Part shown: one piece after another, positions 40,138 to 60,064 of the stretch
How positions within the stretch are numbered: position 1 is the stretch's first letter
How the letters are laid out: every line of letters starts with the position of its first letter
Sequence record: PQ850593.1
Source of the DNA: Escherichia phage AidaStucki_Bas93
Strand: one strand, 5' to 3'
DNA length: 64,000 nt
Translations under genes and position numbers: made by a program
Notes under the pieces: model-generated
Seen by the model: the letters and a program-made list of their open reading frames with translations, nothing else
The model's database searches: none
Told to the model about the DNA's origin: nothing

Positions 40138-40717
40138 TCAGGCTCACCAACAGTAACTTCCCATACAACTTGAGAGATGATATTGTTGATCTGTTTGATT
40201 TGCTCGTAAGTCAGTTGCATACCTTTCATCTTCCGAGAGGCATTGCTTCGTGCTCTTCGCTGACGGTAGAAGTTATTCTTTTTAGTAGAGTGTAATCTAC
40301 TCATTTCACAAGCTCCACTTCTTCAATACTGTACCCTTCAAAATACTCACCATCTTGATCATACTGGTTGATTGCTCTTGTTAGTACCCACACTTTCATT
40401 ATTCTTCTCTTTATGAAGTCTATAAACAGCTGTCGCCATGCAAGCAACAGCTTCATTGTGTGGGAGATGCATCCCTGTAGAACCATCCCAATCTTTGAAC
40501 TCATTGTCAAAGACTCCGGTAGGCTCTGGATACAGAGCTTGCAGCTCAACCAAATCATTAGCAACTTGTTGCCATTTATCATCAGACCAGATAGGGTCAT
40601 CCAACCAGTAATACAAATAGGAATGGATGATTAATTGCCTTCTGTGCCGATTAATTACTTCAGCGGGACTTATCTCACTTCCATTTGAAGTCCTAAATGT
40701 ATTACTGTCAATCATGA

Positions 40718-41374
40718 TTAATTATTCCAAGTAGTTGATAAGGCTTTCCAAGAGATAGGATAAAGTTTCTTCATTTCTTCATCAATAGTTTGTGCAAACA
40801 GTCGGACCTCATACTGAGCGTGCTCTGACAGACGTTGACGGCACACATCTGACCAGCCATATAGAGAGCCAGTCCACACCCACTCAGTGATCATCCCCTG
40901 AGGAAGAACAAATCGAGCTTGCTCTGGTGCAACAAATTCAATCAACTTATCATATGCTGCTAGAGAGGATTCATATGCATCGTTAATCAGCATTAATGCT
41001 TCAGCTCGTTCTCCATCGATGAGTTGAATCCCTGAACCTGCATGGAGGTCCGAAGGTCTCGCAAAAATCTCTTTAGGGATGAAGACTTCAACTGCTCCAT
41101 CTTTATACCGACGGGACATTTCGTTCCACGAGAATCCAACCTGATGCTTGCCCAGCTGTCTCGCAATTGCGATAGGTGCTTTGCATCGGAAACTGACTTG
41201 TGGGTGTCGGAATGGAGTAACATGCTTTTCTCTTGCGAGGAAGTTGATGAGACGTTCATCACGTTCATTTAAATCACCTTCACGGGTTACGCCAAAGGAA
41301 ACTCGAGCTGCGTTTACTACGCTACGATCACTTCCCATAGCTTCGATTAATGTTGCTTGTAGTTGTTCATTCAT
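40718..41374 (-). CDS. thyX: Flavin-dependent thymidylate synthase ThyX
   Basis: ThyX core RHPQVSFRCKAPIAIARQLGKHQ plus the overall ThyX pattern. Confidence 0.85.
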   Translation of the reverse strand: MNEQLQATLIEAMGSDRSVVNAARVSFGVTREGDLNERDERLINFLAREKHVTPFRHPQVSFRCKAPIAIARQLGKHQVGFSWNEMSRRYKDGAVEVFIPKEIFARPSDLHAGSGIQLIDGERAEALMLINDAYESSLAAYDKLIEFVAPEQARFVLPQGMITEWVWTGSLYGWSDVCRQRLSEHAQYEVRLFAQTIDEEMKKLYPISWKALSTTWNN

Positions 41375-41911: not shown

Positions 41912-42475
41912 TTAGTAAGACACATCACCACTTGAGTGGGACATGTTGCTCTTGACAAAGTAGCAATACTTGCCAAGACCTTCATTAATTTCTTGAAGCA
42001 TACTTTGATCGACTGGATAAGTGGCTAAATCGCCATCAAACTCATCCATCTTCTCAATAATACACAACAAGGTCATGCACATATCAGAGAGCATACCGTC
42101 CATGTCTAGATCAGCGTTACCCTCTGAGAACCAAGCATGAGAGAGGTAGTTAGCTGCTGTAGCATCCACTTTAACACAGTGGTAACGCATACGTTCAGCA
42201 ATACGATCTCCTACTTGTCGTGCGTAATCTTCCAGCTCGTCAAACATACCATGAACACCCTGAAATCCTGCACCAGAGACGTTCCAGTGGTAGTTTTTAG
42301 CTTTGATGTGCAAGAGTTCCATATTAGCTTGTAAGCAGCTCAGGATGTGTTCTAGGCTGTTTCCGCTAATCATGCCTTGCATTGTTTCAAGGCGAGAGAT
42401 TGAAAGCTCAGACCGGTCTAACATGCTGTAGCTGTCACGACCAATCTCAGGTAAATCAAAGACATTCTTATGCAT
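41912..42475 (-). CDS. Dps-like ferritin (DNA-binding protein from starved cells family)
   Basis: Dps signature HWNVSGAGFQGVHGMFDELEDYARQVGDRIAERM. The start is placed at MHKNV, after the RBS GGAG. Confidence 0.75.
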   Translation of the reverse strand: MHKNVFDLPEIGRDSYSMLDRSELSISRLETMQGMISGNSLEHILSCLQANMELLHIKAKNYHWNVSGAGFQGVHGMFDELEDYARQVGDRIAERMRYHCVKVDATAANYLSHAWFSEGNADLDMDGMLSDMCMTLLCIIEKMDEFDGDLATYPVDQSMLQEINEGLGKYCYFVKSNMSHSSGDVSY

Positions 42476-43079
42476 TTGGGTTTTCTCCATCAAGTTCAAC
42501 TGAGTTAGCAACGTTACGTGCAATATTGTCCATTACCTGCTGGGTAATTACGATGCAGTTCTGTGGGTCTACTGACTTAGAACGCCCCATTTCTGGGTCA
42601 TACACCTTAACACGCTTAGCAGTTGAACCTGTAACCTGAAGAACCTTCAACAGATATCCCTGATTACCGATAGACCAAGCAACAACATCACGATTCTTGA
42701 TAAAGCGACCAAGCATATCACGATGATAAAACTGTTGCATCACCTTGGATTTTGTAATCTCTTCAGTGGGCGGGGCCACTTTACTCAAATCTAACATAAC
42801 TCTCTCCTGTAAAATACAAACTCTTATTGTACTCTATATACATTTGAGAGTTACCATATCTACTACCAATCAGTAGTGAACTTTTCCGCTAATATAAACA
42901 CGACCAGAGGAATACTCTTTGGCCTTATGGATACTGATACTCTTAGTTAAATCTGTATTGAACATAGACTTTTTAAAATCTCGAGCCTGTTGACGAGTAG
43001 GAAGTGCAGTCATGGTCATACCACCTGATGCCCACTTAATCTTTGCTAACCAAAACTGTCTCATAATGATTGGCCTCAT

Positions 43080-43613
43080 TTACACACCTTTAGATGCAAC
43101 TACACCTTCAGAGTTATTATAACGACCCTTCACTGCATAGGAATGCTCCCCTGCATGAGAGTGCTCAAACATGACCATCTGACCAACACGCATACCAGCA
43201 CGAACTCGTAAGCTGTGGTGCTTTGTTACGTTATGAAATTCAAATGTCAGCTTACTGCTATTAAATCCAGCGTCTGCCCACCCAGCGTGGAGGTGGTTCA
43301 AACCACAACGAGCCATAGATGAACGCAGGACAAACAGGCTTGAAATGTTATCTGGAAGGTTAAACTCCTCCATAGAGTGAGCCAAGAAGAACTGACCCGG
43401 AGTGATAACCAAACCCTCTTCAGGAATTTTTACTTCCTTCCACTGAAGATTCTCTTTCGCATCAATATCAACGATGCCATCAGCCTGTTCTTCAACAAGG
43501 ATAGTATCACCAATACGGATATCCACACTAGCAGCGTTAACATACTTATGCTCCGCATCCAGATAGCCATTGTCAATTACATCATGCAGTTCAATACTTC
43601 CTAGTAAACTCAT
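43080..43613 (-). CDS. dcd: dCTP deaminase
   Basis: Conserved GWADAGFNSSKLTFEFHN and the dUTPase-like fold pattern. Confidence 0.85.
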   Translation of the reverse strand: MSLLGSIELHDVIDNGYLDAEHKYVNAASVDIRIGDTILVEEQADGIVDIDAKENLQWKEVKIPEEGLVITPGQFFLAHSMEEFNLPDNISSLFVLRSSMARCGLNHLHAGWADAGFNSSKLTFEFHNVTKHHSLRVRAGMRVGQMVMFEHSHAGEHSYAVKGRYNNSEGVVASKGV

Positions 43614-43622
43614 TCTTATTCC

Positions 43623-44870
43623 TTAGTTGTTTGTTTCTATGTCAAAAGAGAATCCACGACCCGCTTCATCGGCAAACCGAGCTGTATGGGTTTGAGGCTC
43701 TAATACTTCAGGGTTGTTAGCAATAAAGCGAGCGGCGAGATTATCTTCCACATCTTGACTAGAGGGCTGACGTGCGCTAACAGTTAAACCATTTGGTCGA
43801 CCATTAGAACGTCTAGACAACCACTGCTCAAATGAATCACTAGTAACACCAAGAGCCTCTTCAAAAGATGTTCTACGAGTAGGGCTTACTCTTCGTGACT
43901 CTTGTGCTCGACGCATTGCAGGGGCTACAAACACCCCTTCAATTGCATTATGTCGATTAGGTTCATCTTCCCGACCAAGGAGATCACCTCCTGCATTAGT
44001 TGTTAAGTTTGTCAACCCTTCAGACCAATACGCACGAATCTGGCTAGAGCCATAAATGCTTGACATTAACTGAATCTCTTCATAAGGTATATCAAAGAAT
44101 CGACTCATATCTCGGTTAACACAATACTGAGCACTTGTTGTATCCTCAATAAGAGCAACCTGACCCCGTTCGTTGACCAGATGACTAACCGGCTGAGGTG
44201 TGGGAAGGTGTCGAGTTTGGGCCATGTATTGATATGCAGCTGCTGGAGAGGAAAATCTCAACACTTGCGAGTTAGGCCACTTCTTGTGAACATACCTGAT
44301 TTCACGACTAGAAACAACCACTGGACAAGGGGCGGTCATAGCCAAGTATCCATGAGGGGTCATGAATAAGTTATCAAGAGTCATCGCACCACGGCACATC
44401 ATAGGAAAATTATCCAATACCTCTTCAATAGAAGTAGGATAATTAAACATGAATTGGATACGAACACCATTCCACTGAAACTCAATAATATCAGTGAATG
44501 TTAATTGAGAACCCCCAGCATATGATTCGTTCGTAGCTTCAACAAGAAGAGATGAATACTCAATATCTTGTGATTCAAGCCATTCCTTCACATTACTTTC
44601 AATCTCCCGTCCAAGCATTTGCCACTGCTCGGCTGGGATAAAGGTATTTCGAGTTCTTGGTGTTTGTCCTCTGACAATAAAGATATCAATGTCATGTGGA
44701 GCTATGTTATTAAGAACAGCATCACGAATAGCTCCACCAGTAATGATAGGGCAAATACCATCTGGAATCAAGTTGTTGTTAATCAACTGTTCAATGAAGT
44801 GACGACCAACAGTGATATCAGGTTGTTGAGCAACCTTATCTTCAATTCGGTTAATCGGGATAACAATCAT
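43623..44870 (-). CDS. Pol-beta superfamily nucleotidyltransferase with a CCA-adding or poly(A)-polymerase-type head domain
   Basis: GGAIRD ... HDIDIF catalytic motifs. The start is trimmed to MIVIPINRI, directly after the stop of the upstream gene (ATGTAAAATG). Confidence 0.55.
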   Translation of the reverse strand: MIVIPINRIEDKVAQQPDITVGRHFIEQLINNNLIPDGICPIITGGAIRDAVLNNIAPHDIDIFIVRGQTPRTRNTFIPAEQWQMLGREIESNVKEWLESQDIEYSSLLVEATNESYAGGSQLTFTDIIEFQWNGVRIQFMFNYPTSIEEVLDNFPMMCRGAMTLDNLFMTPHGYLAMTAPCPVVVSSREIRYVHKKWPNSQVLRFSSPAAAYQYMAQTRHLPTPQPVSHLVNERGQVALIEDTTSAQYCVNRDMSRFFDIPYEEIQLMSSIYGSSQIRAYWSEGLTNLTTNAGGDLLGREDEPNRHNAIEGVFVAPAMRRAQESRRVSPTRRTSFEEALGVTSDSFEQWLSRRSNGRPNGLTVSARQPSSQDVEDNLAARFIANNPEVLEPQTHTARFADEAGRGFSFDIETNN

Positions 44871-44871
44871 T

Positions 44872-45426
44872 TTACATTTTCCAATATAATGAAGGTGGGT
44901 CGTAAGGATCAAATCCTGTGAGTTCACACAAGTATTTATAAACCTTAACAGTTAAGTTAACGTCCTGTTCACAGTAAGTAAACATATCTTCAGTGAAAGC
45001 ATCCCATGCTTCCTCTTGCTCACCGTAATCTCCTTTAAGTTCCCCCAAGAACTCACCCCATTGCTTCAAACCGTGACCTCTTGGGCCATGTCTAGGGTCG
45101 CCTTTCGGATACTCAGGACTGTCACCAATACGATCAGGTTTAAGATATCGACTAAGACACAGAGTGTCGAAGACGTTAAAATGATATTTAATCAGATTGG
45201 GATATATTTTCTTCAGAGCACAAAGGTCGAAGTCAATAATGTTATGGCCCACGAGCACATCAGCTTCTGTAAGTTTACGAATCCCATCTTCAATTTGGTG
45301 AGGCCGGTAGCCCCACCTTTCACCAGTTTCAACATCGAAAATGTAAATACACCATACTTTAGTTATATCATCGTACAGTGCGTTACTTTCGATATCAAAT
45401 GCAAACACTTTCTTTTTCTTTACCAC
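44872..45426 (-). CDS. Free-standing DnaQ-like 3'-5' exonuclease (proofreading domain encoded separately from the polymerase)
   Basis: Exo I FAFDIESN. Exo [11 protein letters not shown]. Exo [16 protein letters not shown]. Confidence 0.7.
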
Positions 45427-47210
45427 GGTGAAGCTCCATCTGCTTGGTTAACGAGAGAAGCTGCATCCTCTCCGTTAGTTAAAACGAATGGATTATCTTC
45501 ATCAACTTCAAAGTCTTCCCTTTCTACAAGTCTACCGGTTTCACTGATATACTTAGTATAACAGACACCAGTCTGACCGTAGTTACGTTCTTTCAGTAAT
45601 CGAATGACCGAGAGGTTCTTAGCTAAGCCATCAGCTTGCTTGTCACGTTCAAAGCCAATGATGCACTGACACCAACGCATAAGTGAACGAGAACCAGTGA
45701 ACTGCACTTCACGTACCTGTCCACCTTCTTCGTGAGGAGCACCACCTGCCGGGGCATTAAGGTGAGATAACACGAAAGCTGTAAAGTCTAATTCTTTACA
45801 CATACCAGCAAGCTCGGAAGCAATCTTACTGATTTCAGTGTTAATCTCTGAAGGTGTTAAATGAGATACCAGAGCGGTAATGTTATCAAGGATGATGAAC
45901 TTACACTGGTTTTCAACTACCCAGAAACGTATACACTGTTTAATGTCTTCCCATTCATTCTGTCCGAAGTTGTCATACAAGAAGAATTTATCTGCATAAC
46001 GAAGTGCTTCATTACGCAAATCTTCCTCGTCATATTCAACATCAGGTCGGTGGAAAGGGATTGATGCTGACTTACCAGCAATATTCTTAACAGACATGCC
46101 TACCTTCTCTTCCAAGAAGAAGCCACCCCCATTAAAACCATGCTCTAAGCACAGATGAGCAACCAGTTCGTGAGCAATTAGTGTTTTACCACTGCCTACA
46201 CCACCACCTATTGCTACCACCTCTCCCCATCGAATACCGAAGGTCATCTCATTCAGAGTTTTCCACGGATAGGGAATACCCCACTCCGCTTTCTTCAGAG
46301 CATCATCAAGGCAATCAAAGATTGTTACAGCGCCAGCAGGAGATTCCCGCTTTGCTGAATACTTGAGAATGTTGAATAACTCTTGACCACGACCAGACAG
46401 AAGCATGTCATTCGCATCCTTAATCTCTTTCTCCACACCGTTGTATGGGAAGGTTCCTTTAGGGATACGAGCAAATTTGACATGAGGGAATAAAGAACGA
46501 CCTTTTGTTAAAGCTATCTCACCTGCATCGTCATTGTCCATGCAGAGCACAACCTCCTCAAAACCATTTACGAAGTCCCGATTACGAGACAACACAGAAG
46601 AGATTGAACCTGCACCGAACGGTAAAGAAACACATGCTGGTTTAATGTTTGTTGCATTTGTAAAAGCTGTAAGGACGTGGAAACCAGACATACAAGATAG
46701 CGGGTCTTCAAAAATGAATAGCTTCTTGTTGTACACATCCCCACGTTGAGCTTGTGCCATACCAAAAAGATCTGCTTCTTTTACACTACCTACGTAATAG
46801 AACTTCTTACTATCTAGCAGCTTAACCTCGTAACCAACAATGTTTCCATCACGTTCACGAGGAAAGAAGTAGCTGTCCGGAGTCTGTCCATCAGTCTGAC
46901 TTAGACCGATGCGACACTCAAAACGCTCTGATACAGCTTTAGGGATTAGACGTCGAGTGAGTTCACCCTGAGGAAGTTCTAAGCAATCATCTAAGACTTC
47001 TCTTAACTCTTCAGGGGATAACTCTTTCTTCTCATTTGGAGTAGGTGCAGTGCCCTTTTCGAACACTTCGTAATTCCCACAACGGTTACAACTTCCCCAC
47101 TCCTCACCTGTCTCTTCGTTACGGAAGAGAATCATGTGGTTGTGGGTTTTATCACGACCATGAGAGATACATTCTTTACAACCTGTGTCTCCCAAAATGA
47201 TCTTTGACAT
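45420..47210 (-). CDS. Primase-helicase (T7 gp4-like)
   Basis: N-terminal Zn-ribbon CKEC ... CNRC. TOPRIM EDPLS and DNDDAG. DnaB-like Walker [10 protein letters not shown] and Walker B. Confidence 0.9.
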
Positions 47211-47429
47211 GCTCTTCCTCCTTGGAATCCTTGAGCTTAGTAGAACGAACGAATTTCATCCCACACTTGTTCCTGTTCTTTCCTATAAAAAGAAAGTTGG
47301 GTCTTGAACATCTCCACTGATGATTCAAAGTTTTTAGATTGTGCAGCTTCAACGAAACGTTCATGTCGGTTGATTTTGCACCGTAGCATTAAATACTTGG
47401 CTTCAAGTCTCCGAAGAGCCTGTCTTTTC

Positions 47430-47849
47430 TCAAGATTCACTTTTCAGATACTCTGACCAGTCGCCAGATTCAACCAGAACGTCTTGTTCTTCGTCGATGT
47501 GATAAATCCAAGCGATAACAGTTTCACCTGAGTCCATCTTAACTGGAATCTGAGTGCGTTGATAGAAACTATCTTCAGGGCTACGTTTGTTGTAACCTTC
47601 CAGTCGGTCATATGGACCTTCCAGACCTTCTTTGTCAGTAGCAAACACTTCTACACGAACAGGCTTATTGTTATTGCTGTGTGCGAGAGAGATGCTTGGG
47701 AAGTAGGAACCACCATAACGGAACAGATCAAAGTTGTCTTCAGTCCAACCTTCACCAATTGACTTAGCACCAGCTCGGTCATTAACTAAATAGTTAGCTT
47801 GACCACGACGAAGAGAACCATAAGTTGCTACGTAAATTACTTCTGACAT
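47430..47849 (-). CDS. Gamma-glutamyl cyclotransferase-like (AIG2/GGCT fold) protein
   Basis: N-terminal YVATYGSLRRG motif, characteristic of the AIG2/GGCT family. Confidence 0.55.
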   Translation of the reverse strand: MSEVIYVATYGSLRRGQANYLVNDRAGAKSIGEGWTEDNFDLFRYGGSYFPSISLAHSNNNKPVRVEVFATDKEGLEGPYDRLEGYNKRSPEDSFYQRTQIPVKMDSGETVIAWIYHIDEEQDVLVESGDWSEYLKSES

Positions 47850-48355
47850 TATTTATACCTTTGTTGGTTTGTTTGGTTTATCCGAACTAGCCTCCTCTTT
47901 CGAAGAGGCTAAAGCAGATTACTCTGTAATAAAGATTTTGATTACACCGCAGATTGCCGCACTTTCAAATACTGCAACAGCTTCACTCCCTTGAAAGAAG
48001 GCCACCTTGCCATCAGAGAAGTTAAACATGTCGGCATCTAGGTCCATTGCTCGCATTTCACCAGCTGCATTGGTATCTTTAAACAGAACTTTATACTTAT
48101 TCACAGATATGTTACTCCCTTGTCTTGTTGTGCTTCAGTGATGATACGTTCTACACATTCCATAGAATATTTATCACCACGTTTCAGAAAAGTTACAATT
48201 GCAGAGAACTGGTTGCCAATCATTCGCTGATTAGTGATACCCCATTCTTCACACAATTTACGCAACTCTTTACGAGAGCCTACAATCAGAGGCTCTTTTT
48301 GTTCCATCATTCCATTTTGTACTAGATCTTCCAATGAAAACATATCCATATATCC

Positions 48356-49549
48356 TTAGTAGTTTACAACAGTACCATCATTCAGGGTAATGCTATTAAT
48401 CTGCAACACACGACCAAGCTGACGATTACTGATTGGTGCGTTCCATCCAGAACGGTAGAAGTTACGACCGCAGAAGAACAAGATCACATTACTTGCTACA
48501 ATTGAACCATTCTCAGGGTGCTTAATGTTAGCGATATAATAACCACGACGAAGATTGCGACGGGTGATTGGAGTGATCTCTAACCCTTGCTCTTCAACTT
48601 GCATTGTTTCAGGAACAGGTTCCGAAGACTCTTCAGCAACTGACTCAGCTGTCAATGTAGAGTTCTCATCACCTGATGATTCAGCAGATTCTTCCACTTC
48701 TTCAACAGGCAGTTCGTAAGCAACACGGTAGTTAGGCTCAACTCCAGAGAAGCTCTTAACAAATTCAACGATATTATGAGTGTAAGTTTCCAGAGTTGTA
48801 CCAGTCAGTCCCGGAGCAGTGTTCACTTCCAGAACCCAAGCGTTAGTACCTTTACTGATCAGGTCAACAGCACCGAAGTTTAAACCTAGAGCAGATACAG
48901 CTTTGTGAGCTTGAATCAGAACTTGATCAGGAGGAGCTTCAGTGAATGCGTTAGAGTAAACCCAACCAGTGTGATGGTTACGAATATCTTCACGATAGCT
49001 TTCCAGTTCACGATACCCGTTACGACGGATCTTCTTCTGAACGTAAGTGATAACACCTTCGAACACATGGACACGCCATTCACGACGTGGGCCTTGAATG
49101 CCACGGGTATAGAGAGGGGCGGGAGATATACCTTCACCTGGAAGACGAACAGTGATACCTTCTCCAGAATGACCATTCAAAATAGCACGTTCATAAACAA
49201 TACTATCCAGATTCCATTCTGACGCCTGAGCAGCACGGATTGAGTACTCTACAGTGGATACCCCAGCAGCTTCCAGAGTTTGAAATGCTGTGATTTTGTT
49301 AGCCGCTCGGTTCAAGGCAACCACAGAGTTCAATACAGTTGCCCCACCAAAGAAAGAATCATTGTATCGACGGTTTCCGTAGTTGACAACAATATCACCA
49401 ACACGAGAACGGTAACGAGAACCCTCTGATACCAGAGACATTACGTTAGCATTTAAGCGAAGTTCCTGAACCTTAGTATTGATTGCAGAAGTAAGTTCAC
49501 GAACTGAATCAGAAGGGCCATAAGGAAGAACACGGATACGAGTAGTCAT
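48356..49549 (-). CDS. ATP-grasp ligase (RimK-like), followed by an acidic linker and an extra C-terminal domain
   Basis: NKITAFQTLEAAGVSTVEY. EWRVHVFEGVI. FGAVDLISKGTNAWVLEVNTAPGL. Confidence 0.75.
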   Translation of the reverse strand: MTTRIRVLPYGPSDSVRELTSAINTKVQELRLNANVMSLVSEGSRYRSRVGDIVVNYGNRRYNDSFFGGATVLNSVVALNRAANKITAFQTLEAAGVSTVEYSIRAAQASEWNLDSIVYERAILNGHSGEGITVRLPGEGISPAPLYTRGIQGPRREWRVHVFEGVITYVQKKIRRNGYRELESYREDIRNHHTGWVYSNAFTEAPPDQVLIQAHKAVSALGLNFGAVDLISKGTNAWVLEVNTAPGLTGTTLETYTHNIVEFVKSFSGVEPNYRVAYELPVEEVEESAESSGDENSTLTAESVAEESSEPVPETMQVEEQGLEITPITRRNLRRGYYIANIKHPENGSIVASNVILFFCGRNFYRSGWNAPISNRQLGRVLQINSITLNDGTVVNY

Positions 49550-49994
49550 TGTTAGATACCTTTAAGTTTAAGAATTTCGTTACGAGTTTTTTGAATCTGA
49601 GCTTCAATTTCGAAGTAGTCATTGAACGCATCGTTCTCTACTTCATCGGATGGTGCATCAATCAGACCGAAAGCAAACGGATACAGCTTTCGCTGCTCCG
49701 TTACTAATTCGATATGAACTCCTATGTAATACTGTAGGAGAGTAATCTTCGGTTTCTTAGGAACCAGACTTAACATGAGGTTCTACCTTAATGCCTTTAA
49801 TTTTTACATAATCAGCAAGTACGTTATTGATCACCGTTGGGAATGGAACCTCAACTTGTGTCTCAAGTACTTGACCAATACCAGCTTGCATCCACTTCTG
49901 GATTGCACGAAGGTTATCACATCCTGTGCTCGTCATCGGGATACGTCGAGTAGTTACAACATTATCCAACATCATTTTTCTGATTTCCATAAAC

Positions 49995-52025
49995 TTAACC
50001 TCTATTCAATGAACATTTAGGAGAATTACAATAAACTTGATTCATAGAACCAAGCGTACAACTTTCAGCATCGCGCCACGGAATCTGCTTAAAACACCCT
50101 GAGCAGTAGCCGAGGGTTGACCACATTGCTTTGGTGAAGTCAGTGCTTCGATTTCCGTCGAAGCTGACAACAGTTTTGCGGAGAGCTGTTCGTGATTCAG
50201 GAAACACACCTGCTTTCTCAGCAGGTTCCTCCTTTTTTGGCTTAGTTGAGATTGCAAAAATACTGTTGCTACGTTTCTCAACATAAGCATCAACAACATC
50301 CTCCAGAGTAATGCCTGTCTGTTTCGCTGAGGAAGGTAATACAGTCATACGACCAATCATATCTTCAGTTACACGTAAAGCAAATTCAGGACGACGGGCG
50401 TTTGTTGTATCTGTTGCTTTAATCCAGACATAACCATCTTTGATCGTAGCATTAGATACTTTCTTCTTTATATCTACAGCGCAGACTTTACAGATGTCTT
50501 CACCACGAAGACGACTGAGTTCATCATCAAACTCGTTCTCTGTTTTAACTTCACCACAGATTTCACAAACACCAATAGGAGTTTCCTCCTCTTCTTCATC
50601 TTTAGGCTTAGTCAAACCTTCCAGACATTCAGGGTGCCAGTAGCATTGATATGCGAAGACTGCTTTAGGTGCATCCTTCCAATCAATGTGTTTATCACAA
50701 CCGCCACAATCACCATGAGAATGTGCTTCCCAGAATTTACGAGTGATAGTAACGCCATTCTTGTTGACGAAACTATCATTCATATCAAAAGGGATATCAT
50801 CATCAAAGTCAGCAGTAGTTGACTCAGGCTCCTTTTTCTCCAGAGATGGGTCAACAAAACGACCTGCTGTGATCACTAAACGAACCATAGCATTAACTTC
50901 GGAGATACAGGATACTGTCCCACGGTAAACAATTTTAGGGTCTTTCAGGGCATCCTGATAAGCCTTAATGTCTACGTTATGAACATCACCTTCGATATAC
51001 TCTTGAGATTTCTCATCGTAGATATAACCAATCATCTTACCACGAGAAGGAACAGCACCAGCAGTTGCATAAGGGACAAACTCATGTGGTGTGATCTCCA
51101 CAGTCATGTCGCGGCGAATGTCAATGTTTCGATCGCTTGCGATTTTGTTTTGACTTACCACTGCGTTTCTTCGACGAACGTCTGCCGCTGTCACTCCCGG
51201 CTTCGTGTCGTAAGGATTGCTTGTACTGCTTTTTGAGGAACTTTGATAGTTGCTTTGGCTGTAGTTGTTCGAGTAGTAATTGCCCCAACGATTGATTACC
51301 GTAAAAACCGGAAGCTCGTGGGCGACCTCTTCAACTAGAGTCATGCTGTTGTTTGACACATCAAAGATGTATTCTGTACCAACTTTACATTCAAAGTGCT
51401 CATCAATGCGATTCTTGTGAGACCTAGAACGCTTCAGAATCCACATCAACATATCTTCTTCAGAAGCACCAAACCAATCTCTGTTACAACGTGCAAGATG
51501 GAAAGGACGCTCTTCATTACGGATGATATGAAGACGATTATCAGAAGCATCGTGCCAGATTAAGGTGAAAGCACCATCCAGCTTTTGAATAGTCTCTGCT
51601 GCACCAATAGTGTTAATAGAGTGGCAGATGTTTTCACTGTCTACCTCGAAGTTTTTACTGTCAGGTAACAGGTCTTGGTTCATCAAGGTTCCGTTATGAA
51701 CCAGAGTGATGTTACCGTGTTGGAAAGGATGGGCGTTCTTGGCGTTAACTGCACCTTTCGTTGCATGACGGCTGTGACCAACAATCCATGAAGGTGCTAC
51801 AGTGTAAGCTGTTTCACCAGTGGTGTGCTTCTTGTACTCATCTTTAAGGATGAATGCGAAAGAAGGAAGTGCCTCTTTATAAGTGAAGACCTCTTTAGTG
51901 CTTTTACGCTGACCAAAGATACCAGAGGAGTGCTGTCCTCGGAATACTCCAGCATAAAAGAGTTGGTTAAATATATCTAAATCAGTGCTTGACAGATTAC
52001 CGCCAGCTAATACGATGCCACAAAT
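49995..52025 (-). CDS. Class-II (Ntn) glutamine amidotransferase, about 676 aa, with a Cys-rich C-terminal extension. The start is non-canonical.
   Basis: Catalytic N-terminal segment CGIVLAGGNL ... HSRHATKGAVNAKNAHPF ... HNGTL. Only AAA-ATT separates an in-frame TAG from the Cys codon. SD AGGTGGA lies 7 nt upstream of the ATT. Confidence 0.65.
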   Translation of the reverse strand: MCGIVLAGGNLSSTDLDIFNQLFYAGVFRGQHSSGIFGQRKSTKEVFTYKEALPSFAFILKDEYKKHTTGETAYTVAPSWIVGHSRHATKGAVNAKNAHPFQHGNITLVHNGTLMNQDLLPDSKNFEVDSENICHSINTIGAAETIQKLDGAFTLIWHDASDNRLHIIRNEERPFHLARCNRDWFGASEEDMLMWILKRSRSHKNRIDEHFECKVGTEYIFDVSNNSMTLVEEVAHELPVFTVINRWGNYYSNNYSQSNYQSSSKSSTSNPYDTKPGVTAADVRRRNAVVSQNKIASDRNIDIRRDMTVEITPHEFVPYATAGAVPSRGKMIGYIYDEKSQEYIEGDVHNVDIKAYQDALKDPKIVYRGTVSCISEVNAMVRLVITAGRFVDPSLEKKEPESTTADFDDDIPFDMNDSFVNKNGVTITRKFWEAHSHGDCGGCDKHIDWKDAPKAVFAYQCYWHPECLEGLTKPKDEEEEETPIGVCEICGEVKTENEFDDELSRLRGEDICKVCAVDIKKKVSNATIKDGYVWIKATDTTNARRPEFALRVTEDMIGRMTVLPSSAKQTGITLEDVVDAYVEKRSNSIFAISTKPKKEEPAEKAGVFPESRTALRKTVVSFDGNRSTDFTKAMWSTLGYCSGCFKQIPWRDAESCTLGSMNQVYCNSPKCSLNRG

Positions 52026-52104
52026 TTTCTAATCCACCTGAAGGGTAAACCCTTTCATCTAATTAACCTTTAAATTATGCCCCTTCGTCAGAGGCACCCA
52101 TTGA

Positions 52105-53208
52105 TTACAGCGCTTGCTCTAACTGATTTTCCAGATGATCTGGAATATATCCTGTGATGTTGTTATCACTGTGTCCTGACTCACGTAGCAAGTCAAAAAT
52201 AGCACGGATACGCTGTTCTGATGCAGATCGTACAGTAGATAGGTCAGTTGTACGAAGCATAACCAGAATTTCTTGGTACAAGTTGTTAGCGTTCCCTCGA
52301 ATATACCCAAGGAACCCATAGAAGTCTGGAATAAGACGTAAGTCAACAAGGACTTCTCCGTTGGAGTCGGTTCGACGTAAACGAATACGACCAGACTGCT
52401 CTACTTCATGAGAACGACAATACAAAACATCACGGGCCATACAATACCCTGAATGCAAATCCGATTCGTCCAGATTGTAATCCAGAGGAAGATAAGGAAG
52501 CATTGGGGCAAATCGTACAGTATTTAAATGCTCAATAAACTGGTCATTGCTCATCTCTGCGTTATCTAAAGCCAGCTTCTTCAACATTAAGAAGCGGTTA
52601 ACCAGATTGAGAAGTTGACCACGTTTCCACTTAGGCTCGCTGATACGAAACTCAATTGAGCCGTATTGGGCAAGTGGCAGAAGGTTCAGAGATGTATACT
52701 TATCCCATGAACGAACCAGACGGTTGAAGAACTCTTCACCGTCGTAGTTAAATGCGTCAGAGGCGTTCATTACCTGTGCTTGTACCACTGCGAAAGCAGG
52801 GCAGAAGTTGCTACGGTAACGATGATAGCCTGAACACTTGAACAACATTTTTTCATAGAAGGTCCAAGCGAGGATGGTTTTCTTGAGGATATTACTATCA
52901 GCATCCCTCATATCCATATGAACGTGAGTAGAGCAACGCCAAGTCCCCTCGGCGTGCGATTCAGCTACTGCTTCACTCAGGTTGTTGATAGCGTCTAACA
53001 ACTCCTGTCCATTGTAAGGTCGTGAACATACCATTTCACAACCATTACGCAGGGAACCATCCTCTGTACAATCCCACATATCTGCTTCAATATGGTCGGA
53101 ACCTTCGAGTTCTAGTTCGATACCGATACCGCACTGAAGTGCAATTGAACTATGCGCCTCAGTTAAACGACCTTCTCGGTATCCAAAAGTTTGCGCTACA
53201 GTTGTCAT
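52105..53208 (-). CDS. Amidoligase (GCS2 / glutamine-synthetase-like fold)
   Basis: GIGIELELEG and CSTHVHMDM motifs. Confidence 0.55.
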   Translation of the reverse strand: MTTVAQTFGYREGRLTEAHSSIALQCGIGIELELEGSDHIEADMWDCTEDGSLRNGCEMVCSRPYNGQELLDAINNLSEAVAESHAEGTWRCSTHVHMDMRDADSNILKKTILAWTFYEKMLFKCSGYHRYRSNFCPAFAVVQAQVMNASDAFNYDGEEFFNRLVRSWDKYTSLNLLPLAQYGSIEFRISEPKWKRGQLLNLVNRFLMLKKLALDNAEMSNDQFIEHLNTVRFAPMLPYLPLDYNLDESDLHSGYCMARDVLYCRSHEVEQSGRIRLRRTDSNGEVLVDLRLIPDFYGFLGYIRGNANNLYQEILVMLRTTDLSTVRSASEQRIRAIFDLLRESGHSDNNITGYIPDHLENQLEQAL

Positions 53209-53822
53209 AACGAATCCACCAACGTAATATTATAATTGCTAAGATTTTCAGAGATGTGATGAAAATGTTCCAGAAGTCGCATCGGTTGCTGACCATAAGA
53301 GTCACGAGGTGCTTCTAGATCTACTTGTCCTACCAGTGCACCTTTATAATGCACTTTACCATCTGTAGGATTGATGTAAATGTAACGAGTGACCAATCCA
53401 TCAAACTCTGGATTGAACAAACTGTAAACCATCTCCCCAGAGATAGAACGACCAATCCCAGGAGCATTTCGAATCTTATTACCCATTAAACCCTTTGCTC
53501 TCTGACGAACAGGGTTAATATGAGTCCAGCTCACAGTGTTACCGTTATGGAACAGATAACCAACATCAGGTGATTCAAGAATCAAGGTTGGGTCGAACAC
53601 TGGAATATTCATCACAGTGTTTCGAAGATTCCCATGCTCGTTCTTGTACCACTGCTCTACAACAAAATACAGAGCCTGCTCTGCTTCGTGAGAGAAGTCA
53701 TCGCTGCGGAAGTTACCGCTCTGCTCAACACCAATCACAAAACATGGAAGGTTGATATTACCTGCTCGTTTAGCAATCCATGTACCGTTATAGTAATGAG
53801 AAAAATCAGATACTAAGCTCAC
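53205..53822 (-). CDS. Hypothetical protein in the ligase cluster (205 aa)
   Basis: Translationally coupled within the operon. Confidence 0.3.
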   Translation of the reverse strand: MSLVSDFSHYYNGTWIAKRAGNINLPCFVIGVEQSGNFRSDDFSHEAEQALYFVVEQWYKNEHGNLRNTVMNIPVFDPTLILESPDVGYLFHNGNTVSWTHINPVRQRAKGLMGNKIRNAPGIGRSISGEMVYSLFNPEFDGLVTRYIYINPTDGKVHYKGALVGQVDLEAPRDSYGQQPMRLLEHFHHISENLSNYNITLVDSL

Positions 53823-53831
53823 GATAACCTC

Positions 53832-54638
53832 TTATGCTACCTGAAGGCGTTTAATCTGCTGGTCCGCTTCTTTAACGTTATTACCGTTAATGATTTCATG
53901 AAGCTTCTCAATCGGAAGGCGAGAGTGCAATGCCATCAGAGTGGACATGTCACACTGCTGAACAACCTTGTCAACCTGATCATAAACAAACTTACGGTTT
54001 TCACGATCACTAATCCAGAAGTTAGACAGGGAACGATATTCAATACCATAGTCCTTGTAGCGGATTGCAGATGCTTTACCGTAGAGTTCTTTACGGCGAG
54101 TGTCTTTATCCATAATAACTGCTGGGAGGGATAGGAAGTAGTCACACAGCACACCCAGCATCATCTGAGTTTGCAGGGTGATATCCAAAGCACCAACTAC
54201 GCCAAGATGTACGTGACCACCGGCAGTACGAAGCCCCTTATTTTGAGAAGTCGGGGATGGGTTCTTCTGACCAGTGAAAGCGTTGAAATCAGGAGTACAT
54301 CCAAAGATGAACGCTGATTCATTGAAAGTCTTCATCTCTTCTTCAGTGAAGATGTGAGAGCTAACACCCGGAGCTGTTTCCATGTCCAGTTTGTTCAGGA
54401 CATTATTGGTGAGATCGATACCACGTTGCATGTTGTCATTAAACGCTTCAAAACCACTCTGTGGGTCAATATCAAACTCAGCCAGTACGTTGTCCTCTTG
54501 AAGACGAACATCCTTAGCCAGAGCGATCTTATCGTCCTTAGAACAACCTAACAGACCAGCTACAGAAGTGATGATTCCTTTGCTGGTACGAACGAACATT
54601 TCCGGATCCGATCCTATTAAGAATTTGCGCTTAGTCAT
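53832..54638 (-). CDS. Second amidoligase-like protein (GCS2-like)
   Basis: LIGSDPEMFV and TAGGHVHLGV, analogous to the E-x-E and HVH motifs of the 367-aa amidoligase. Confidence 0.4.
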   Translation of the reverse strand: MTKRKFLIGSDPEMFVRTSKGIITSVAGLLGCSKDDKIALAKDVRLQEDNVLAEFDIDPQSGFEAFNDNMQRGIDLTNNVLNKLDMETAPGVSSHIFTEEEMKTFNESAFIFGCTPDFNAFTGQKNPSPTSQNKGLRTAGGHVHLGVVGALDITLQTQMMLGVLCDYFLSLPAVIMDKDTRRKELYGKASAIRYKDYGIEYRSLSNFWISDRENRKFVYDQVDKVVQQCDMSTLMALHSRLPIEKLHEIINGNNVKEADQQIKRLQVA

Positions 54639-55602
54639 TGTAATACTCCACTAGTTCAGAAAAGAGAGATGAGATTGTGTTACCGATTTCTTCAGGATTA
54701 AGACCAGAATCTATTCCAGTACGCTGAATTATTCGTGCTGTAAAGTTTTGTACTGTAATGTTTTCCAACTTATTATCTATTGCTTCACGTTTGTGACCAT
54801 AACAGTTGGACCAGAGTTTTAACCACTCTGACATTGTTTCATACTCATCTGGATCTTGATCTTTAGCACGAGCAAATCTTCGTAAGACATCTGTGTTGTG
54901 GTTACGAACATAACCATTCTCGTTGTCACCAACACCGAAGGGGTTTTGAACCCATACTTGCTTCGTGTATTCATCAGAGTCAACAACCAAAGGAAGGAAT
55001 GCTGCTGCTGACATATTGTTGTCAATAACAACAGACGTGCTTTCACTACTCCCATTGGAAGCTCCTCGTTGAGACCACCTACCAAAGAAGTCACGACCCA
55101 ACCCAGCTAACAACAGAGCGATGCCAATGCGTTTACGCTTCAGCCACTCTTCCCTGTCTTCAATTCCTTCTGCTAGGAAATCCATTCCACGATACTGCCC
55201 TTCCAAAATGCTACGGAAGAGCATAAGTCCTGTGAAGATTTGATCTGCTGGATGCTCACGGAGGTTGACAGCTACGCTATTCGCTGAAGTGATTGTGAAT
55301 ACATCGCGATAGCAAGACATGGAGTTCATAATATCTGCTGTTTCAACCAAGTTCTTTTCAATATAAGATGCATCATGACCGTGAAAAGAGTGAGTCCAGT
55401 AATTCAGCATCTCCAGTTGCAAGTTGATATCACGGTTGAAGCGTCTATAACGCCCCTCTTCCATGATAACTTCGCCATTAATATCGCTTACACATTGGCC
55501 TTGCATGTAGTTGTGAATACCGAAGCACCCACGACCTAAGAACTTCTGTTCCCCTAAATCTTGTTGAAGATTCAGAGGTACGATCGTTGTGGAGATTGAC
55601 AT
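54631..55602 (-). CDS. Hypothetical protein in the ligase cluster (323 aa)
   Basis: Operon member. No recognisable motif. Confidence 0.3.
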   Translation of the reverse strand: MSISTTIVPLNLQQDLGEQKFLGRGCFGIHNYMQGQCVSDINGEVIMEEGRYRRFNRDINLQLEMLNYWTHSFHGHDASYIEKNLVETADIMNSMSCYRDVFTITSANSVAVNLREHPADQIFTGLMLFRSILEGQYRGMDFLAEGIEDREEWLKRKRIGIALLLAGLGRDFFGRWSQRGASNGSSESTSVVIDNNMSAAAFLPLVVDSDEYTKQVWVQNPFGVGDNENGYVRNHNTDVLRRFARAKDQDPDEYETMSEWLKLWSNCYGHKREAIDNKLENITVQNFTARIIQRTGIDSGLNPEEIGNTISSLFSELVEYYND

Positions 55603-55612
55603 AACTAACCTT

Positions 55613-56809
55613 TTATTTTCCTAAAAATAATCCGCTCATAATACCATCCCACTCAGAGGATGGAATCACTGAATACTCCGAACTTTGGTCCAGAGTTCCA
55701 CTACTAAATCTCTGAACAATGTTATAGATGTTGAACAGGTCTTTAGCCTCAGTACGGATACCGTAGACTAATTTATCAGATGTTCTTTCATCTTTAGATA
55801 CCCGACGAGCAAAATTAACCAGAAGGTTGTCACATTTAAGCGTTTCTGACCCACTCTCTACCAAATCAGGGTGCATCACAGGCAAGAACATCGAGTTATT
55901 GACTCGCAACTCTGCTGTTTCGTCATTCTCATAATGAATCCACTTAAAGTCTTCATCACGGAAGTGACCACAACCGTCTCTGTACGACTGCTGACGCCAA
56001 GGCACTTTAAATGCTTTAGCATACTTATCAGCCATGCCAACTGTAAACAACGACGCTGGGAAGATGCAAGCATCCCAATCATTACCGACCAGAGTTGCTT
56101 TCGTTTCACCCAAGAGGTTAGTATAAGTGCTAATCATTCGGGAATAAATATAAGCCTGAAGGATTGTCCAACCTTCAATCAACCATTTATGAAGGAAGGT
56201 TTCAACTTGACTCTCTTCGTCTTCGCAATAGAAGGTTCGGTCTAGCATTAAATAGAACAGACAACGATCAGCAGGGATGTTCTCAGTTGCTACACCCATA
56301 AAACCTTTCTCGTGCCAGCGTAAACAGGAGGGACGATCTTTGTCCACAAATGCTTCCATAGCTTCCAGTACAGCACGAGGTGAGGTTTGGTATTCAGGGT
56401 TTTTACTATTCCAACGATCAATGTTGTTCTTAGGAGGTGTGTCTTCATCTTCATACGAACACCAACTTAAAGCTTCAGATACGTGCTTTTCATCACACCA
56501 ATGCCTAAAACCTAACATCTTCATGTGAGTTCCGGAGTTCCAGATATGCTTGATTTTACACATATCCATCTCTCGGCTTAACAGGAACTCTTCCCCATCA
56601 GCGCTACGAACGTTAGCTTCTTCATTCCACACTCGAACGTGCATATTCCACCCATAAGTTGCCTCATACGTGTTAGGGTCGAAGTATTCATATTCGTCAT
56701 CATCTTCATCAACGCCACCGTTATAGTTGCGGAGCTGAAGGAATCCATAGCAAGGAGGATAGACCGTTAAAACTCTACCTTCAATATCTTCTAATGTTAC
56801 TGGAAACAT
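55613..56809 (-). CDS. Hypothetical protein in the ligase cluster (398 aa, Trp/Cys-rich)
   Basis: First gene of the block. No recognisable motif. Confidence 0.3.
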   Translation of the reverse strand: MFPVTLEDIEGRVLTVYPPCYGFLQLRNYNGGVDEDDDEYEYFDPNTYEATYGWNMHVRVWNEEANVRSADGEEFLLSREMDMCKIKHIWNSGTHMKMLGFRHWCDEKHVSEALSWCSYEDEDTPPKNNIDRWNSKNPEYQTSPRAVLEAMEAFVDKDRPSCLRWHEKGFMGVATENIPADRCLFYLMLDRTFYCEDEESQVETFLHKWLIEGWTILQAYIYSRMISTYTNLLGETKATLVGNDWDACIFPASLFTVGMADKYAKAFKVPWRQQSYRDGCGHFRDEDFKWIHYENDETAELRVNNSMFLPVMHPDLVESGSETLKCDNLLVNFARRVSKDERTSDKLVYGIRTEAKDLFNIYNIVQRFSSGTLDQSSEYSVIPSSEWDGIMSGLFLGK

Positions 56810-59467: not shown

Positions 59468-59546
59468 CGAGGATGACAGGGTTCGAACCTGCATACTCCA
59501 ATTACTTCTTTAACGACCGCTTAGAAGGCGGGGAAGATACATCCTC
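59468..59546 (-). ncRNA. tRNA-like element with a perfect 7-bp acceptor stem, a canonical T-arm, a UCU anticodon-like hairpin, no D-arm and a long variable region
   Basis: T-arm GCAGG-TTCGAAC-CCTGT. Acceptor stem GAGGATG/CATCCTC plus discriminator G. Hairpin CCGC-CUUCUAA-GCGG. Embedded in a 15+5 bp inverted repeat. Confidence 0.35.
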
Positions 59547-59557
59547 GCTAGAAGCTC

Positions 59558-60064
59558 TTATTTATTATTGAAACCCTTGCTCCAGTAATACTTACCATTG
59601 CAAGACCTACTACAAAAATGATTTTGGTTTTCTTTGTGGACCTTGTTACTCCTTCTCTCAAAAGATGTGCCACAATTACTGCAAACCAAAGTTATGACCA
59701 CACCCTTAGGTCTGTTCTCTAAGGTCTTCTTTAAGTGATCATTTGTGCTTAGAATCTGAAGGTTAGATATCTCATCATTGGTTGGATTTTGATCAACATG
59801 ATCTACCTCTTCCTCTGTAGTGAGATATCTTCCTATGTGGCAGGACATTAAGTACCTAGCATAAGAAACAGTAGACCTGTCTTTATCAGAGTTGTAAAGA
59901 TCTACAACCCTTCTCCCCTCTCGATTTTGACGAAGATATCCCCACCTCCAGTCATTGCAGTAGGGATAATCTAATTGTATTTTCAAATTACCTCCTGCTC
60001 TATCCATTGAGCTAAGAGCGCTTAATTTATTTAGATCATATCTCGCTTGGTGATAGGACCACAC
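59558..60064 (-). CDS. HNH homing endonuclease
   Basis: DHVDQNPTNDEISNLQILSTNDH HNH core plus a C-terminal CxxC ... CxxC. Confidence 0.65.
   Translation of the reverse strand: MWSYHQARYDLNKLSALSSMDRAGGNLKIQLDYPYCNDWRWGYLRQNREGRRVVDLYNSDKDRSTVSYARYLMSCHIGRYLTTEEEVDHVDQNPTNDEISNLQILSTNDHLKKTLENRPKGVVITLVCSNCGTSFERRSNKVHKENQNHFCSRSCNGKYYWSKGFNNK

Follow-up and report, generated by a model that had tools for sequence, protein, structure and literature searches.

An amidoligase cassette of phiEco32-type phages as a candidate glutamate-centred amide-bond pathway

Known relatives of the cassette

The closest described system to the 9.4-kb minus-strand gene block at positions 47430 to 56809 of Escherichia phage AidaStucki_Bas93 (sequence record PQ850593.1; the whole 64,000-nucleotide stretch analysed is referred to as the window) is the amidoligase cassette of phage phiEco32. 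Iyer, Abhiman, Burroughs and Aravind in 2009 (Mol Biosyst 5:1636) reportedly defined the amidoligase families and described the phiEco32 neighbourhood computationally. Because Pfam family PF14395 bears the name 'Phage phiEco32-like COOH.NH2 ligase-type 2' and the block shares 99.5% identity with that of the deposited Escherichia phage JacquesWildberger_Bas92, the cassette was already known, and the block is a phiEco32-type phage amidoligase cassette, a predicted but uncharacterised system and not a new discovery. It has the same genes in the same order as the phiEco32 cassette (PF14395/PF12224), with no sequence difference in kind: both ligase domains score above the gathering cut-offs, and the neighbouring genes for an amidotransferase retaining Cys1, an ATP-grasp protein, and a gamma-glutamyl cyclotransferase (GGCT) are syntenic with those of phiEco32. 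The literature holds genome papers that list the cassette genes, and we found no experiment on function or product; together with the Pfam naming, this agrees with an earlier sequence-only reading of the window, which stated that such gene sets had been noted in phage surveys with no product established. The present analysis may add a protein family (u323/u398), the universality of another protein (u205), and the pattern of alternation between GGCT and Peptidase_C26.

The reading that we favour, and regard as evenly poised between right and wrong, is that the cassette is one glutamate-centred amide-bond pathway, with attachment, elaboration, and removal steps on an amine-bearing acceptor. A ligase paired with a removing enzyme has precedents in BtrJ/BtrG (butirosin), PuuA/PuuD (putrescine), and EgtA/EgtC (ergothioneine), and in butirosin synthesis the gamma-glutamyl group is a transient amine-protecting group that is released as 5-oxoproline. 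Like the block, the butirosin cluster is described as combining an ATP-grasp ligase (BtrJ) with an AIG2/GGCT-fold enzyme (BtrG); unlike the block, its pathway includes an acyl-carrier protein, a decarboxylase, and an acyltransferase, whereas the block adds two ligases of the glutamine synthetase (GS) fold and an N-terminal nucleophile (Ntn) amidotransferase. The PuuA/PuuD and EgtA/EgtC pairs each join a GS/GCS-fold ligase to a remover, matched here by a Peptidase_C26 protein (the PuuD family) in sister lineages and by the Ntn hydrolase-like protein (the EgtC family) as the other candidate, but the phage proteins reach no equivalog cut-off, form families of their own, and carry extra domains such as zinc ribbons. 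The RimK/LysX/MptN/CofF alpha-L-glutamate ligases are the nearest sequence relatives of the ATP-grasp protein and share its ATP/Mg motif; unlike them, the phage protein has an extra C-terminal domain, and no S6-like or LysW-like partner was found in the block.

Gene layout and distribution

The source phage is a Kuravirus (Gordonclarkvirinae), and its block is 99.0% identical to that of phage LAMP and about 94% identical at the nucleotide level to those of NJ01 and other phiEco32-group phages; phiEco32's own copies have protein identities of 90% (398-aa protein) and 98.9% (COOH-NH2 ligase), and the Bas92 record annotates the same block genes. The block is flanked by small early open reading frames (ORFs) and by genes for primase/helicase, 3'-5' exonuclease, nucleotidyltransferase, dCTP deaminase, and ThyX. 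All eight large ORFs, which lie on the minus strand and had been read from the letters alone as two amidoligases, an ATP-grasp protein, an amidotransferase, a GGCT-like protein, and three unknowns, were recovered at the positions given below. Gene junctions in the block comprise overlaps of 8, 4, 20, 4, and 11 nt, gaps of 2-10 nt, and two larger gaps of 79 and 69 nt; within the block no internal promoter signal rose above chance and no convincing terminator was seen. These tight overlaps and gaps, with no convincing internal terminator, indicate that the block is real and compact. The corresponding region of phage SU10 belongs to the early gene class, and homologues of the ATP-grasp protein, the amidotransferase, and the cyclotransferase (YtfP/GGCT) were detected there by mass spectrometry; the block is a piece of a longer early transcription unit, not an isolated operon (PMC4281155). 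The description of the block as a tightly packed, single co-transcribed unit thus holds as to overlaps, short gaps, and lack of a terminator, and has to be amended for the gaps of 69 and 79 nt and for the longer early unit.

The COOH-NH2 ligase is encoded by 306 deposited phage genomes, including Escherichia, Pseudomonas (LUZ24-like), Vibrio, Aeromonas, Proteus, Cronobacter, and Klebsiella phages and one crAss-like phage, and has 537 relatives in IMG/VR. By comparison, 185,579 species genomes yielded only 40 loci, most of them in metagenome-assembled genome (MAG) assemblies, many on contigs of ~40-100 kb and many with the same primase/helicase, and we therefore consider the cassette to be essentially phage-restricted. 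Synteny was counted with iterated hidden Markov models (HMMs) on 90 loci. The order COOH-NH2_lig, u205, Amidoligase_2, class-II glutamine amidotransferase (GAT-II), ATP-grasp is collinear in almost all of them (~89), Amidoligase_2 is present in all 89 cassette-holding loci (89/89), and the ATP-grasp gene is present in 83. The lineages concerned are Gordonclarkvirinae, Bruynoghevirus, Zobellviridae, Grimontviridae, crAss-like phages, and many uncultured phages, and the same gene order is seen in LUZ24 (gp14-gp24), the Zobellviridae phages O4 and KpnP_VR7901, Vibrio phage KIT05, Privateervirus, GAP52, and the crAss-like cr108_1. The earlier suggestion that the genes act together is strengthened by this collinearity of five enzyme genes and the 205-aa gene in ~89 phage loci from several families.

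Start/stop overlaps also join neighbouring genes, and it is the strict collinearity, the co-inheritance of six or more genes in very distant phages, and this translational coupling that argue for one pathway. The same three features count against the proposal that these are independent auxiliary metabolic genes, each separately re-routing host glutamine, glutathione, or polyamine pools to support replication. That proposal draws on resemblances to known pathways: a GCL-like ligase together with a GshB/RimK-like ATP-grasp and a GGCT is reminiscent of the gamma-glutamyl cycle, the pairing of a GS-fold ligase with a C26 hydrolase brings to mind polyamine gamma-glutamylation by PuuA/PuuD, thioredoxin and ThyX genes are nearby, and Pharokka labels several of the cassette genes 'auxiliary metabolic gene'. 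However, no protein reaches the NCBIfam cut-off of the GshA, GshB, PuuA, or GlnA equivalog, and the family is almost absent from bacterial chromosomes. Of the glutathione/gamma-glutamyl cycle only the cyclotransferase is represented by its family (GGACT, PF06094), the two GS-fold ligases having no NCBIfam match and the ATP-grasp matching RimK, MptN, and Ddl rather than GshB. We consider independently acting genes unlikely.

At ~9 kb, the cassette costs roughly 13% of the genome and so must matter for infection. It is one of the larger conserved gene sets with an unexplained purpose in lytic podophages, and its carriers include therapeutic-candidate phages of Pseudomonas (LUZ24-like) and E. coli (Kuravirus) as well as crAss-like gut phages. 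Because phages Bas90-94 grow on engineered E. coli K-12, the question is now genetically testable.

Cassette proteins and a candidate pathway

Pfam hits were judged against gathering cut-offs throughout, and all cassette genes described here are on the minus strand. The COOH-NH2 ligase type 2 (53832..54638; 268 aa), a GCS2/GS-fold ATP-dependent carboxylate-amine ligase, scores 34.1 bits with PF14395 (cut-off 25 bits; E = 2.2e-8) and matches PHROG 3815 at 2e-118; DPE, Q-x-D...E, GC-PD, H-x-H, and R...YG-EYR are invariant across 10 lineages. Amidoligase_2 (52105..53208; 367 aa), the second GS-fold ATP-dependent carboxylate-amine ligase, scores 33.3 bits with PF12224 (cut-off 22 bits; E = 6e-8) and matches PHROG 7469 at 2e-157. 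For these two proteins NCBIfam gave no match and a PDB sequence search gave nothing useful. The translations contain ELE and HVH in the 367-aa protein and DPE and HVH in the 268-aa protein, and the original identification of two GCS2/GS-fold amidoligases from E-x-E-type and HVH motifs is upheld by motifs and Pfam families alike. Profile searches of the block returned the ligase, amidotransferase, and GGCT families that had been proposed, not unrelated folds.

The third ligase, a RimK-like ATP-grasp protein (48356..49549), has an 80-aa C-terminal extra domain. It is under the Pfam cut-offs (RimK, 6.8e-3), and its support comes from NCBIfam (rimK_fam, 7.7e-8; MptN, 3e-7), from solved structures of RimK-family alpha-L-glutamate ligases in the PDB (8e-4), and from PHROG 2599 (1e-180), with PHROG 20552 matching over residues 316-397; the D...E-x-N motif quoted in the sequence-only reading also supports the assignment, which stands despite the sub-cut-off Pfam scores. 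Against the RimK family model TIGR00768 it scores 32 bits where the curated cut-off is 143.4, with the match confined to the C-terminal nucleotide-binding half. By this score the protein is not a RimK-family member, but it may work like RimK. Weak matches to D-Ala-D-Ala ligases were also seen in Pfam, NCBIfam, and the PDB.

The class-II (Ntn) glutamine amidotransferase-like protein is encoded by a 2031-nt coding sequence that is open over the whole of 49995..52025. Its start codon is ATT (52023-52025), directly before the Cys codon and preceded by an AGGTGGA Shine-Dalgarno sequence; the first canonical start, a TTG at 51686, would delete Cys1, and the Bas92 record annotates the same 2031-nt long form. 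ORF finders restricted to ATG, GTG, and TTG starts shorten the protein by 113 residues with loss of the nucleophile, and one related locus (L006) has ATG-TGT at the start position. GATase_6 matches at 3.2e-15, above its gathering cut-off, and NCBIfam matches are to the N-terminal domains of GlmS, PurF, AsnB, and EgtC (the last weak, 2e-4). Conserved in 10 lineages are Cys1, HxRxATxG, HNG, and DS, with R28-G29 likewise conserved across lineages; these comprise the glutamine-binding Arg, Asn-Gly, and Asp, and the Ntn domain retains the residues for the alpha-amino and alpha-carboxylate groups of glutamine or of a gamma-glutamyl group. The C-terminus carries one CxxC...CxxC zinc ribbon conserved across lineages and two more in Kuravirus. 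Residues 240-676 have no Pfam match, and neither Pfam nor NCBIfam reports a known synthase domain, including asparagine synthase. Without a known synthase domain, the protein may be a gamma-glutamyl amidohydrolase; partnership with the GS-fold ligases as ammonia acceptors is also possible. Of the earlier assignment as a glutamine-donating class-II amidotransferase with an N-terminal Cys, the fold and Cys1 are borne out, and the donor role has to be shared with the alternative of an amidohydrolase like EgtC.

The GGACT/AIG2-like gamma-glutamyl(amine) cyclotransferase (47430..47849) matches GGACT (PF06094) at 1.6e-17, above the gathering cut-off, and PHROG 2520 at 5e-45; its translation contains the YGSLRRG motif, and the Pfam match and motif together confirm the AIG2/GGCT-fold protein first recognised by that motif. 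Lineages without this gene have a Peptidase_C26 protein upstream of the ligase (Pfam, 1e-12 to 1e-17). Peptidase_C26, a family of class-I amidotransferase fold, takes in both gamma-glutamyl hydrolase and PuuD. Of the 59 IMG/VR loci that keep 3 kb or more of flanking sequence on each side, 27 have GGCT only, 25 have Peptidase_C26 only, two have both, and five have neither; at least one gamma-glutamyl-amide-cleaving enzyme is thus present in 54/59, and the two types are strongly complementary by Fisher's exact test (p = 1.4e-9, uncorrected for phylogeny). In the MAG set, every locus longer than 12 kb carries at least one remover. A robust conclusion is that the system includes, as an integral component, an enzyme that cleaves gamma-glutamyl amides and that can come from one or the other of two unrelated folds. 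GGACT enzymes, PuuD-type C26 enzymes, and Ntn amidotransferase domains all require a gamma-glutamyl unit with a free alpha-amino group, and by this established family enzymology the removers and the glutamine-binding residues of the Ntn domain suggest a gamma-L-glutamyl-NH-R intermediate whose alpha-amine is free.

Two sets of loci depart from the usual composition. In Privateervirus and its relatives (L012, L018-L021) and in GAP52 (L091), Amidoligase_2 is 513-523 aa and the ATP-grasp protein up to 618 aa, with large extra regions; the 20-kb loci of Privateervirus type (L018-L021) yielded no GGCT and no Peptidase_C26, and the remover may be fused or replaced there. Four MAG contigs (L114, L124, L125, and L126) contain a minimal cluster of COOH-NH2 ligase, Peptidase_C26, GGCT, and Peptidase_C26 and lack Amidoligase_2, GAT-II, and ATP-grasp; these may be a simpler relative with one ligase and gamma-glutamyl removers.

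The 205-, 323-, and 398-aa proteins have no match in Pfam, NCBIfam, PADLOC, or PDB sequences, and all 10 block proteins scored 0 matches in PADLOC-DB, which covers anti-phage defence and counter-defence. The 205-aa protein u205 (53205..53822), between the two GS-fold ligase genes, is universal at 190-205 aa: HMMs of the LUZ24 gp17 type and of the O4 gp54 type converge on 66 shared ORFs in 81 loci, so that the two types form a single family. A low-scoring model of its N-terminal domain is an SH3/Tudor/KOW-like beta-barrel, and it has no invariant Lys, Cys, or Glu. A role as covalent carrier through a conserved Lys was considered and rejected on that count; u205 is probably a non-catalytic adaptor.

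Directly upstream of the COOH-NH2 ligase gene is that of u323 (54631..55602), and upstream of it is u398 (55613..56809), the first of the two genes. Word-indexed homologue searches gathered only shallow families for u205 and u323, and an exhaustive HMMER search of 1.8 billion proteins found 23 representatives of the small u323 family, with no fusions to known domains. Single-linkage clustering joins u323 with the product of ~300 aa whose gene immediately precedes that of the ligase in 40 loci and with both upstream genes of Privateervirus, and the cluster conserves Cys26, Asp120, Arg130, Gln219, and Tyr231-x-Arg233. By sequence, u398 was found solely in Gordonclarkvirinae and close relatives, but profile-profile comparison (hhalign) links it to the u323 family with 91-93% probability (E ~1e-6), and the two share the motifs C[FY]G, PADx5LMx2R, and WxQ; on this evidence we take them to be paralogues of one widespread cassette family with an invariant Cys. 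Links to LUZ24 gp14/gp15, O4 gp59, and cr108 proteins, which shallow profiles missed, came from the single-linkage clustering and from BFVD structure matches. The three proteins listed earlier as unknowns thus remain without database matches, and two of them prove to be paralogues. A structure model of u323 aligns weakly with PafA and Dop and is possibly a degenerate GS/GCS-like fold; profile-profile comparison of u323/u398 with the two ligase families was negative, in a test of low power that also misses the link between the ligases themselves.

The chemistry of these families suggests the following course. A GS-fold ligase would join the gamma-carboxyl of free glutamate to the acceptor amine through an acyl-phosphate; with the amine masked, the other ligases would extend or amidate the molecule; and the Ntn protein would either deliver ammonia from glutamine or hydrolyse a gamma-glutamyl amide. 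In the last step the gamma-glutamyl group would be taken off, by GGACT to yield 5-oxoproline in this phage, and by Peptidase_C26 to yield glutamate in other lineages. The u205 barrel and the Cys-bearing u323 and u398 would most likely bind or display the acceptor, or bring the enzymes together.

Several points weigh against this scheme. First, no remover of either kind lies within 20 kb in five loci (Privateervirus and one other), and several MAG loci hold GGCT and Peptidase_C26 together; because of the latter, the either-or pattern is a tendency and not a rule, and strict mutual exclusivity was rejected. Second, the ATP-grasp protein is below the curated cut-offs of every named family in Pfam and NCBIfam, so glutamate as its substrate is a guess. 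Third, the Ntn protein might act as a genuine amidotransferase, as a hydrolase, or in both ways. Finally, the order of steps and the protecting-group role are deduced from the chemistry of the families.

Possible acceptors and surrounding genes

The possible acceptors are weighed here among all readings of the cassette. A free small molecule is a possible acceptor, although short of likely, and roughly half of the weight that we give it belongs to the independently acting metabolic genes considered above; a small-molecule product would be rare phage secondary metabolism. A protein- or carrier-bound amine is a somewhat more doubtful acceptor, and would make the cassette a phage-borne glutamylation or tagging system.

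The specific form of the latter proposal is that glutamate or a short glutamyl peptide is placed on a lysine or the C-terminus of a host or phage protein, in the manner of RimK, TTLL, or Pup, with GGCT or C26 as eraser. The original proposal of Iyer et al. is said to have been close to this. The nearest characterised relatives of the ATP-grasp protein include RimK, which glutamylates ribosomal protein S6, the classical substrate of GGACT is epsilon-(gamma-glutamyl)-lysine, and the universal non-catalytic partners (the u205 barrel and the Cys-bearing u323 family) and the zinc ribbons suggest recognition of a macromolecule. Pupylation by PafA, Dop, and Pup also resembles the cassette in using two or more GS-fold paralogues that act on a gamma-carboxylate. 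However, the block encodes no small protein in which a C-terminal Glu, Gln, or GG[QE] is conserved. Its small ORFs are s77 (49757..49990; 77 aa, 3' of the amidotransferase gene), with homologues in 23 loci including Privateervirus and LUZ24 (gp20); the lineage-specific s74 (49552..49776; 74 aa, annotated in Bas92); and the Gordonclarkvirinae-specific s82 and s61 (together 47919..48349; 82 and 61 aa). Neither the C-terminus of s77 nor the C-terminal Glu of s61 is conserved, and a Pup- or LysW-like tag among them was rejected for want of a conserved C-terminus. None of the block ORFs has GG[QE] at its C-terminus, and the PafA and Dop profiles give no match, the weak fold resemblance of u323 being the only link; PafA, Dop, and RimK equivalog scores in NCBIfam were not reached, and u205 offers no invariant Lys, Cys, or Glu as a modification site. 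Because cyclotransferases and Ntn/C26 hydrolases need a gamma-glutamyl group with a free alpha-amine, only single-Glu side-chain adducts would be allowed. The peptide tagging named in the sequence-only reading is not shown by these results, and we regard protein modification or tagging as unlikely.

An envelope acceptor is a highly improbable one. Remodelling of peptidoglycan stem peptides, or other amide chemistry in the envelope, could serve superinfection exclusion, and a passage in a later paper attributes to Iyer et al. 2009 a proposal of cell-wall modification preventing superinfection (PMC10580990). Ddl-like ATP-grasps and gamma-glutamyl/iso-glutamine chemistry are central to peptidoglycan, which gives some interest to the weak D-Ala-D-Ala ligase matches described above. 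The block proteins show no membrane, secretion, or Mur-ligase feature in Pfam or NCBIfam, and the cassette is expressed alongside replication genes. Moreover, the hosts differ greatly in their envelopes, ranging over Proteobacteria, Bacteroidota (for the crAss-like phages), and organisms whose MAG bins carry the labels Saccharibacteria or Firmicutes, yet the enzymes are collinear. Of the explanations that compete with a single glutamate-centred pathway, envelope remodelling is accordingly one that we consider very unlikely indeed.

The position of the cassette brings in DNA. The primase/helicase gene (45420..47210) lies immediately downstream of the block, separated from it by a 67-aa ORF (47237-47440) between the cyclotransferase and primase/helicase genes, and 49 loci, drawn from unrelated phage families, have a primase/helicase gene after the cassette. 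Multi-enzyme clusters at this position in the replication module are typically DNA-modification pathways, and the GS-fold and ATP-grasp ligases might assemble an amide side chain derived from glutamate on the base of DNA or of a deoxynucleotide, with gamma-glutamyl as a removable protecting group, as a defence against restriction enzymes. The conserved zinc ribbons on the amidotransferase are consistent with this proposal, Gordonclarkvirinae broadly resist restriction-modification systems without a known cause (PMC11990801), and uncharacterised genes for amidoligases and amidotransferases are found together with thymidine-hypermodification clusters (PMC8989533). ATP-dependent amide ligation on DNA is proven for CmoY, which joins glycine to 5-carboxymethylcytosine (PMC12783734). 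CmoY is likewise a phage ATP-dependent amide ligase, some homologues of which are fused to a class-II glutamine-hydrolysing domain, but it has a PP-loop fold, forms AMP, and needs CmoA and CmoX, whereas the block ligases are of GS or ATP-grasp fold and acyl-phosphate-forming.

No enzyme that would make a handle for such a side chain (dUMP/dCMP hydroxymethylase, 5-HMUDK, aGPT-Pplase, CmoA/CmoX, DpdA/TGT, or TET/JBP) was found in the whole-genome annotation of Bas92 or by Pfam in the block proteins, a scan outside which small hypothetical ORFs elsewhere lie. In the same two sources the dUMP hydroxymethylase or TET/JBP, 5-HMUDK kinase, and aGPT-Pplase that mark a thymidine-hypermodification cluster are absent, and the Bas92 annotation has no CmoA or methyltransferase of the CmoA/CmoX/CmoY pathway. 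The thymidylate synthase is an ordinary ThyX (Thy1, 8.9e-44), five type II enzymes (RsaI, HpaI, EcoRV, SmaI, and HaeIII) cut the DNA of phage tf, a carrier of the cassette (PMC3517423), and more than 100 Kuravirus genomes have been sequenced with no report of modified bases found in the literature. We consider DNA or deoxynucleotide hypermodification an improbable account of the cassette, and place DNA or a nucleotide as the acceptor between unlikely and improbable. Were it true, it would explain the restriction resistance of Kuravirus/Gordonclarkvirinae and constitute a new DNA-hypermodification chemistry, and, since crAss-like, LUZ24-like, Zobellviridae, and many marine phages have the cassette, a widespread, unrecognised DNA modification would be indicated.

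Some further features of the window and of related phages are recorded here. LUZ24-like cassette carriers (tf; L009, L027, and L030-L033) have sequence-specific single-strand nicks, at 5'-TACT/RTGMC-3' in tf (PMC3517423). The ThyX gene (40718-41374) and that of a dCTP deaminase-like protein (43080-43613; 3.6e-34) are near each other on the minus strand; the phage therefore appears to make thymidylate (dTMP), which does not fit the suggestion in the BASEL paper that deoxyuridine (dU) might replace T in such phages. At about 59546-59617 the Bas92 equivalent is annotated as tRNA-Arg, and ARAGORN finds no tRNA anywhere in the window. Three other minus-strand genes lie near these. That at 40359-40715, labelled 'DNA ligase' in Bas92 and far too short for one, encodes a 118-aa stand-alone Ia (NAD+-binding) domain of NAD-dependent DNA ligase (Pfam Nlig-Ia, 2.5e-35). 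The 'DNA binding protein' at 41912-42523 has a ferritin-like domain match over residues 71-115 (3.2e-7). The 434-aa 'nucleotidyltransferase' at 43623-44927 has a weak match to the poly(A) polymerase/CCA-adding head domain (E = 0.011); its gene overlaps the exonuclease gene by 56 nt, and the protein was detected by mass spectrometry in SU10.

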